Positions 27,401 through 27,533 of a stretch of 28,425 nt of DNA are shown in pieces. The stretch is taken from the IMG/VR virus record IMGVR_UViG_2619619134_000010; one strand, written 5' to 3'. This stretch comes from a virus (taxonomy: Duplodnaviria > Heunggongvirae > Uroviricota > Caudoviricetes). Numbering within the stretch: the stretch's first letter is position 1; each line of letters begins with the position of its first letter. The notes under the pieces are model-generated. The model did no database searches. It saw only the letters and a list, made by a program, of their open reading frames with translations, and was not told the DNA's origin. The position numbers and the translations under genes were made by a program.

Positions 27401-27490
27401 GATCAAACTCATAAATTTTCGCTAATGACATTTCGTGTTATTTGTTGTATCAATTAAATAAATCAAATCGATCGTTTTTGTCGATCGATT
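27401..27490 (+). promoter_or_regulatory. Candidate com-mom regulatory region: three GATC (Dam) sites and a 9-bp perfect inverted repeat just upstream of com
   Basis: GATC at about 27401, 27470 and 27483; aatcgatcg-tttttgt-cgatcgatt palindrome at about 27466-27490; AT-rich. In Mu the mom promoter is controlled by Dam methylation of clustered GATC sites and by the C activator. Confidence 0.5.
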
Positions 27491-27533
27491 GAGTGATAAA
27501 GATATCAACAACAAAGCAGGAGGTTATGCGGCC

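Follow-up and report, generated by a model that had tools for sequence, protein, structure and literature searches.

Control of mom in bacteriophage Mu by Dam methylation and OxyR is a textbook case. The Mu operator, which covers about −90 to −54 as judged from its GATC and site positions and the start of the mom transcript, lies upstream of the site of the activator C, and repression by OxyR from so far upstream, without displacement of C, has long been awkward to explain. The element considered here is a perfect palindrome with two GATC sites, found in front of com in the com–mom modification operon of a Mu-like prophage of Escherichia coli (IMG/VR record IMGVR_UViG_2619619134_000010). The whole stretch of 28,425 nt that was analysed is referred to as the window, and the two sites (starting at 27470 and 27483) as GATC II and GATC III, after their counterparts in Mu. 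An earlier interpretation made from the letters of this DNA (the sequence-only reading) had proposed that the operon is under Dam-sensitive control, possibly with a variant regulatory logic.

The closest described systems besides Mu are the gtr operon of phage P22 and Salmonella, the phase-variation operator of agn43 (flu) in E. coli, and opvAB of Salmonella. Like com–mom of the window, gtr is a phage-borne modification operon. It carries the sequence TTGATCG-N7-CGATCAA twice, with a GATC spacing of 13 bp and 7-bp dyad arms. Each of its GATC pairs is situated within one OxyR dimer half-site (consensus ATAGxTxxxAxCTAT), and OxyR binding is abolished by Dam methylation (PMC2909390, in which the comparable regulation of agn43 and of mom in Mu is also summarised). 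With two GATC pairs and three half-sites, gtr allows alternative OxyR(AB) and OxyR(BC) occupancy and shows true phase variation, whereas the window has one GATC pair and a lone, non-conserved GATC 69 bp upstream.

The regulatory region of agn43 in strain MG1655, GATCaatatctattttatcGATCGtttatatcGATCGataag, includes a core, ATCGATCG-TTTATAT-CGATCGAT, that is nearly identical to the palindrome of the window, with the same spacing of 13 and with an ATCAAT element upstream, and the host species is also the same. However, agn43 is located on the chromosome, encodes an adhesin, and lacks a Com or C layer; it has three GATC sites (spacing 19 and 13) where the site in the window has two, and its operator lies downstream of the transcription start. 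In opvAB, as predicted for the window, GATC-associated OxyR half-sites are located upstream of the promoter, and OxyR acts independently of its oxidation state. In turn, opvAB differs in having four half-sites and four single GATCs, in using OxyR as an activator, and in following another spacing logic.

The palindrome upstream of com

The intergenic region to the left of com, which is common to com and to a leftward open reading frame (ORF, 26984–27277), is 256 bp long and has a GC content of 34%. The DNA upstream of com contains three GATC sites, at 27401–27404, 27470–27473, and 27483–27486, exactly as listed in the sequence-only reading. The latter two are 13 bp apart, start to start, and both belong to an inverted repeat whose 9-nt arms (27466–27474 and 27482–27490) are 100% complementary and are separated by a 7-nt spacer. 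The perfect palindrome that had been noticed, with 9-bp arms and an N7 spacer, is therefore confirmed, and its distance from com, estimated at about 45 bp, was measured as 43 nt from the end of the repeat to the ATG at 27534 (51 nt from the start of GATC III).

In Mu, the sequence upstream of com reads cGATCGaatcaattaaatCGATCGgtaatacaGATCGATTatgcccc, with GATC II and III embedded in AATCGATCG-gtaatac-aGATCGATT. The two phages share the inverted repeat at GATC II/III (8 of the 9 arm positions in Mu), the 13-bp spacing, the preceding ATCAATTAAAT, and the homologous position upstream of the com and mom genes. Palindromy, which the sequence-only reading had taken as a departure from Mu, is not one, since Mu itself has the repeat with a single mismatch and the same spacing. 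Nor do the three GATC sites of the window represent the trio of Mu: GATC I of Mu corresponds to TATC at 27449, a 7-bp insertion is present between this position and GATC II, and the site at 27401 is an additional one that is not conserved. The momP1-type arrangement of Mu, in which three GATCs with spacings of 18 and 13 lie upstream of the activator site, was not found in the window. What does differ, as had been proposed, is the closeness to com. The palindrome ends 43 nt from com in the window and 70 nt from com in Mu, i.e. 27 bp nearer, and the corresponding distances from GATC III to the ATG are 51 and 78 nt.

The promoter elements of Mu momP1 have no equivalents at this locus. The Mu C box (ATTATgccccaATAAC), the T6 run, and the TAAGAT −10 are all absent upstream of com in the window. 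A rule for C-dependent promoters ([CA]ATAA[CT]C[CA]C, 20 nt, −10), worked out from the oligonucleotides of PMC4461284, fits all four Mu late promoters, and no match to its C box was found in 27400–27533. Nor was a T6 run found there next to a TAAGAT −10 (19-bp spacer), the sole T run (27475–27479) being the spacer of the palindrome. With the palindrome 27 bp nearer to com and the momP1 elements missing, the promoter architecture, judged from sequence, must differ from that of Mu. The operator of the window is probably not placed upstream of an activator site, as in Mu, but over the core promoter. Of the variant regulatory logic suggested earlier, this part stands, whereas the palindrome itself is ordinary: the element is a well-supported homolog of the known operator, which appears to be placed in a different promoter context.

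The number of GATC sites is of little help in judging whether the element is meaningful. The window as a whole contains 97 of them, below the shuffle mean of 110 ± 9. The 256-bp intergenic region has 3, compared with 0.80 expected from composition (Poisson P=0.048); four further clusters of at least three GATCs per 133 bp occur in the window, and GATC-N9-GATC, which is found once in the window, occurs at least once in 34% of shuffles. Enrichment by itself is weak evidence and was rejected as insufficient; conservation is decisive.

For the analysis of conservation, 80 com loci were gathered from IMG/VR, and 47 distinct com-upstream sequences from IMG/VR were compared. The GATC-N9-GATC pair is present in 38 of these 47, and in 36 of the 38 GATC III is located 50–53 nt before the ATG. 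When 12 diverged com-upstream regions were aligned (alignment A1, mean column identity 50%), the only invariant blocks of at least four bases are GATC II, GATC III together with the AT pair right after it, and the GAGG core of the Shine-Dalgarno sequence. Within the clade of the window (30 loci, 11 haplotypes), a single column of the 25 in the palindrome is variable, as opposed to 9 of the 12 columns just after it. Exact matches to ATCGATCG-N7-CGATCGAT number 59 in 2.9 million viral contigs, and 30 of the 59 are situated 44–50 nt upstream of com. The palindrome is invariant although identity in C, the activator of the phage, falls to 40%, a pattern that fits recognition by a host factor rather than by a phage factor. 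We regard the element as real, conserved, and functionally important.

Only the window-type haplotype and one further locus (L008) carry the GATC at 27401, which the O157/Sp18-type relatives lack. It is surrounded by a weak dyad; both are lineage-specific, and this GATC is probably not part of the operator. It was judged to be stray, one extra GATC per 256 bp being a chance expectation. A role as a distal half-site like that of gtr was considered and rejected, with a match of about 5/10 (counted by hand), a wrong spacing of 69 bp, and no conservation.

The operator reading and its alternatives

The palindrome would, with a probability of about 0.68, be the core of a Dam-methylation-sensitive OxyR operator for com–mom that overlaps a weak promoter. 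Its identity as a Dam-sensitive OxyR operator, taken separately from the position of the promoter, is very likely; the Dam-sensitive control suggested by the sequence-only reading thus gains support from the homology to GATC II/III of Mu and from the near-identity to the agn43 and gtr operators. The two GATCs are 13 bp apart and are placed symmetrically within one predicted 15-bp half-site, with their methylatable adenines falling in the ATAG/CTAT recognition elements. The element is homologous to, and conserved with, an experimentally validated operator. E. coli supplies Dam and OxyR, and the window, as an E. coli prophage, resides in a host that has both. A putative second half-site starts with the TATC at 27449–27452, which aligns with GATC I of Mu and of the Salmonella type (A1 columns 39–43) and reads as a degenerate GATC I (G-to-T) that would not be methylatable by Dam.

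Together, the two half-sites span 27449–27485, where the 37-bp consensus for an OxyR tetramer scores 13/20. This is the joint best score in the window, reached or exceeded in 18% of composition-matched shuffles of the AT-rich intergenic DNA, and validated sites score similarly (Mu 13, gtr 13, agn43 14). Scans of the window against Rfam and for tRNAs gave nothing at threshold. The sole Rfam match, to IS102/IsrC (the agn43 leader RNA), reaches 21.1 bits against a gathering threshold of 46; it starts at 27449, is confined to 27449–27490, and is carried by the palindrome. In data with one genome per species, a GATC pair precedes com in Enterobacterales alone (Citrobacter, Salmonella, Apirhabdus, and a metagenome-assembled genome of Enterobacteriaceae), and none was found upstream of com in Acinetobacter, Neisseria, Methylophaga, and others. 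Literature searches returned no relevant methylome or transcript data on com operators of Mu-like prophages.

In unmethylated DNA, OxyR would occupy 27449–27485, with the second half-site (27449–27463) completing a tetramer site with 27471–27485, and would keep com–mom off by blocking RNA polymerase at the overlapping −35 element and spacer, i.e. by direct occlusion of the promoter. Methylation by Dam of the adenines in the GATCs at 27470 and 27483 would exclude OxyR and free the promoter for transcription. Such logic would follow that of the OxyR(BC) OFF state of gtr and of the repression of agn43. An operator that probably overlaps its promoter, at about 51 nt from the ATG, would also offer a simpler mechanism, that of occlusion, than the one required by Mu.

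The position of the promoter was approached with a simple position weight matrix (PWM) for −35 and −10 elements, which recovers the known promoters of gtr (TCGATC-17-TACACT) and agn43. In most com lineages, the best candidate has its −35 inside the palindrome. Examples are L018, with TTGTCG-19 or TCGATC-16 and TATCAT (PWM 5.7–7.6), L045, L049, and L071, with TCGATA- or TCGTCA-16-TATCAT, and L080, with TTGATC-16-TATGAT. For the window, the most likely arrangement is an operator lying over both the −35 and the spacer of a weak sigma-70 promoter, TCGATC or TTGTCG followed by TATCAA, with a predicted transcription start at about 27515, just before the Shine-Dalgarno sequence; the OxyR(C) half-site of P22 gtr has this geometry. 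Given that the site is an OxyR operator, this overlap has roughly an even chance of being correct. The candidate −10 starts 20 nt after the start of GATC III; in gtr, where the promoter-proximal pair overlaps the −35 TCGATC, the −10 and the mapped start follow GATC4 by 21 and 33 nt, respectively (PMC2909390). The 12 bp that separate the palindrome from the candidate −10 are hypervariable and behave like a promoter spacer. The weakness of the com promoter suggests that an activator may be needed.

Several observations weigh against an operator with this layout. The half-sites match the consensus at only 7/10 and 6/10, and the consensus score alone proves nothing. The site contains two methylatable GATCs, as opposed to three in Mu and in agn43. 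Haemophilus is Dam+ and OxyR+, yet its com cassettes, within the same one-genome-per-species set, lack the GATC-pair motif. The overlapping promoter candidate of the window is weak, with a PWM score of 1.4 and a −10 without the final T, and a candidate further upstream, ATGACA-17-TATCAA, scores slightly higher at 2.9. Finally, the TTCCGCAAA box present at other putative late promoters of this phage was not found upstream of com.

The upstream candidate leads to a layout resembling that of agn43, in which the site would still be a Dam/OxyR operator, with com transcribed from ATGACA-17-TATCAA. The operator would then extend over about −10 to +26, with the palindrome transcribed as part of the com leader, and OxyR would prevent initiation or serve as a roadblock. 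Among the candidates close to com this pair ranks first by PWM score (2.9 both in the window and in L008, 1.6 in L019), a higher-scoring TTTAAA-17-TAAATT (4.5) being about 120 nt upstream of the ATG, and ATGAC(A/T)-17-TATCAA is kept in L019 and L008 despite unrelated sequence further left. The ATGAC motif is the left edge of the block that is common to the window and the O157-type relatives. The agn43 transcript, according to the isrC annotation, starts at GATC I, which places the operator downstream of the start there, and the Rfam model of the agn43 leader aligns from 27449. However, the pair is kept in the clade of the window and not in the L037, L045–77, and L080 lineages, whose best candidates are situated over or downstream of the palindrome and score 7.5–8.5 in L045–77 and L080, although just 3.0–3.2 in L037 and L040. 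The −10 of the upstream candidate also lacks the final T, and hypervariability in the 12 bp after the palindrome is more in keeping with a spacer than with a leader. We regard this layout as unlikely overall, and the upstream promoter also stays well short of an even chance when the identity of the operator is granted.

Other explanations would remove OxyR from the scheme. With a start near 27515, the position that C occupies in Mu (−57 to −28) would fall on the palindrome, and the probable need of a weak promoter for an activator would be satisfied if the dyad were the binding site of a C/Mor-family late activator or of another phage regulator, with the GATCs incidental or modulating. In Mu, the C dimer binds a dyad centred near −43.5 (PMC4461284). 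Yet the same palindrome operates in agn43 and gtr, neither of which has a C protein, and the repeat of Mu is located upstream of the C box (as placed by the established C footprint) and is not the C box itself. Furthermore, GATC-N9-GATC occurs nowhere else in the 28-kb window, and so not at the late-promoter regions of lys, I, and P, and the palindrome remains invariant across phages whose C proteins are 40% identical. A site for a phage protein is consequently improbable. A role at the RNA level, either as a leader hairpin affecting the stability or translation of com mRNA or as an intrinsic terminator of leftward antisense transcripts, is very improbable, although the hairpin folds with −11.6 to −11.7 kcal/mol (z = −2.9 to −3.6) and the terminator scan reported, on the minus strand, a 9-bp stem followed by TGATTTATTT. 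That strand was the only one flagged, the stem includes only 4 GC pairs, short of an intrinsic terminator, there is no minus-strand gene to the right of the repeat, and the plus strand has no T tract. The T-rich tail is not found in agn43, and no Rfam family reaches threshold. The conserved feature is GATC itself: L040, with a left arm CGATCA and a right arm CGATCG, keeps GATC though its counted arm complementarity is zero.

Promoters that respond to Dam through a GATC in a core element are established, as in pIN of IS10, and this precedent, together with the location of GATC III inside the candidate −35, would allow for a direct effect of Dam without OxyR. Methylation would then alter the binding of RNA polymerase or of SeqA, which has been reported as an ancillary factor in the OxyR/Dam-controlled opvAB switch, and would couple com to replication. 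Such an effect leaves unexplained the strict 13-bp pairing, the dyad symmetry, and the identity with OxyR operators situated outside core promoters (−90 to −54 in Mu, downstream of the start in agn43), and it could add to control by OxyR rather than replace OxyR. As the sole explanation it is extremely improbable.

Distribution of the operator-plus-com unit

The short spacing between GATC III and com is the commonest arrangement (36 of the 38 IMG/VR regions), and the long spacing characterises Mu, L080/L155 (Apirhabdus), and L177, each of which has a C-box-like sequence. The layout of Mu is that of a minority, whereas the short layout is present in most enterobacterial Mu-like prophages. Among them are those of the O157 Sp18 type and those of 233 complete E. 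coli genomes, out of 5,426, in which DNA related to the window occurs.

The enzyme encoded behind the operator-plus-com unit varies. It is Mom in 29 loci, a C5-cytosine methyltransferase (PF00145) in Mu-like elements associated with O157 and Shiga toxin (Stx) phages, and an N6/N4 methyltransferase (PF01555) in the Salmonella-type version; the loci showing these swaps are L034–L044, L002 (~3320), L045–L079, and L081–L083. The unit behaves as a portable cassette that can precede DNA-modification enzymes of three unrelated kinds. That methyltransferases take the place of mom in other Mu-like phages was already known (PMC3299994), and the present loci extend this. A distant com is paired with a D12 Dam-like methyltransferase and has no GATC upstream.

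With a probable location of the operator directly on the com promoter and no Mu-type C box, the cassette could behave like gtr or agn43. It is conceivable, though quite unlikely, that the short cassette would work as a heritable ON/OFF epigenetic switch of this kind, firing in a lysogen subpopulation without input from the lytic late activator. If it did, a resident prophage would phase-variably hypermodify or methylate the DNA of its host, using Mom, a C5-, or an N6/N4-methyltransferase depending on the lineage, and would constitute a prophage-borne 'phasevarion'; bistable expression in lysogens would link prophages to the epigenetic heterogeneity of the host.

In L075, L078, L079, and L152, the GATC cluster has collapsed (...CATAACAAATCAATTTGTTATCAT... 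or ...CATAACAGATCGATTTGTTATCAT...), apparently by recombination between the GATCGAT repeats, making these loci natural operator-less variants. Additionally, the same palindrome, as ATCGATCGGTTTCAACGATCGAT, with a third GATC 14–19 nt away was found in AT-rich intergenic phage DNA with no com nearby (L097, L110, L116, L132, L135, L137, L139, and L145), as was a version with ...GTGGTGA... (L115 and L141). These com-less palindromes are possibly further Dam/OxyR switches in phages.

The com–mom operon and the surrounding prophage

The features of the locus are collected in Table 1. The operon consists of a gene for a four-Cys Com protein, in which Cys7, Cys10, Cys26, and Cys29 are invariant, followed by the mom gene, which overlaps the 3′ end of com by 47 nt.

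Table 1. Coordinates of the regulatory features and genes of the com–mom locus in the window
Feature	Coordinates	Strand	Details
Third GATC	27401..27404		Inside weak dyad 27392-27419, AAAATTAGTGA / TCATAAATTTT, promoter region of leftward ORF
Alternative upstream promoter	27425..27453	+	ATGACA 27425-30, 17-nt spacer, TATCAA 27448-53
Putative second OxyR half-site ATCAATTAAATAAAT	27449..27463		6/10, 22 bp upstream of first half-site
Perfect inverted repeat AATCGATCG-TTTTTGT-CGATCGATT	27466..27490		Proposed Dam-sensitive OxyR operator core
Predicted OxyR dimer half-site ATCGTTTTTGTCGAT	27471..27485		7/10 to ATAGnTnnnAnCTAT
Candidate com −35	27478..27486	+	TCGATC 27481-86 (16-nt spacer) or TTGTCG 27478-83 (19-nt spacer); overlaps right arm and GATC III
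Hypervariable 12 bp	27491..27502	+	Between palindrome and candidate −10; 9/12 columns variable in 11 haplotypes
Candidate −10 TATCAA	27503..27508	+	TATCAT or CATCAA in sister haplotypes
Shine-Dalgarno AGGAGG of com	27518..27523	+	GAGG core invariant in alignment A1
com	27534..27734	+	66 aa, four-Cys zinc finger, PF10122
mom	27688..28425	+	245 aa, PF25680, E = 8e-78

The prophage was compared with those of E. coli AF39 and M1; that of E. coli DLI.5a was set aside, as it is not collinear with the whole window (chromosomal DNA is present upstream of the expected prophage position). The AF39 prophage is 100% identical to the window over window positions 430–3000 and nearly identical elsewhere. The window opens with the 3′ end of an insertion sequence (IS, positions 1–419; transposase C-terminus ...YRLRWQIELAFKRLKSLL...), whose insertion point is immediately upstream of the ORFs of the lysis region. 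The AF39 prophage is without this IS and has in its place the lysozyme gene and the gene of a Mor/C activator. A C/Mor-family activator gene is not encoded in the window, which starts inside the IS downstream of that gene; the C homolog encoded in the AF39 prophage (WP_000852372) is 40% identical to Mu C. Since the IS cuts the late region off from C in the genome of the window, the prophage there may be impaired.

The box TTCCGCAAA(A/T)(C)C occurs upstream of the lysozyme (lys), I (protease), and DUF6645 genes (window 8110–8120 and 24073–24081; L005 ~31045, minus strand), and GTCCGCAGAAAC is found upstream of P. The form TCCGCARA has 8 matches in the window compared with 2.6 expected, none of them upstream of com. 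The box is suggestive of a late-promoter element, or a C-homolog element, of this phage lineage. A search of the window for the Mu C box (MATAAYCMC) gave three matches, a number at chance level, with none near com or the late promoters.

RefSeq annotates a 'tRNA-OTHER' in the AF39 and M1 prophages at about 7400–7480 of the window, between the genes of the minor head protein and of virion morphogenesis; ARAGORN found no tRNA anywhere in the window. A cargo block of ~3.4 kb (24060–27300) separates the gene of a gin-like recombinase (23487–24059) from com. It comprises the gene of a 684-aa DUF6645 protein (24145–26199), small DUF1378 and DUF826 genes, and the leftward ORF at 26984–27277 (87/97 aa), which has no Pfam match. 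In Mu, gin adjoins the mom operator, and ATCAATTAA from the gin stop region is still recognisable at 27450–58 of the window.

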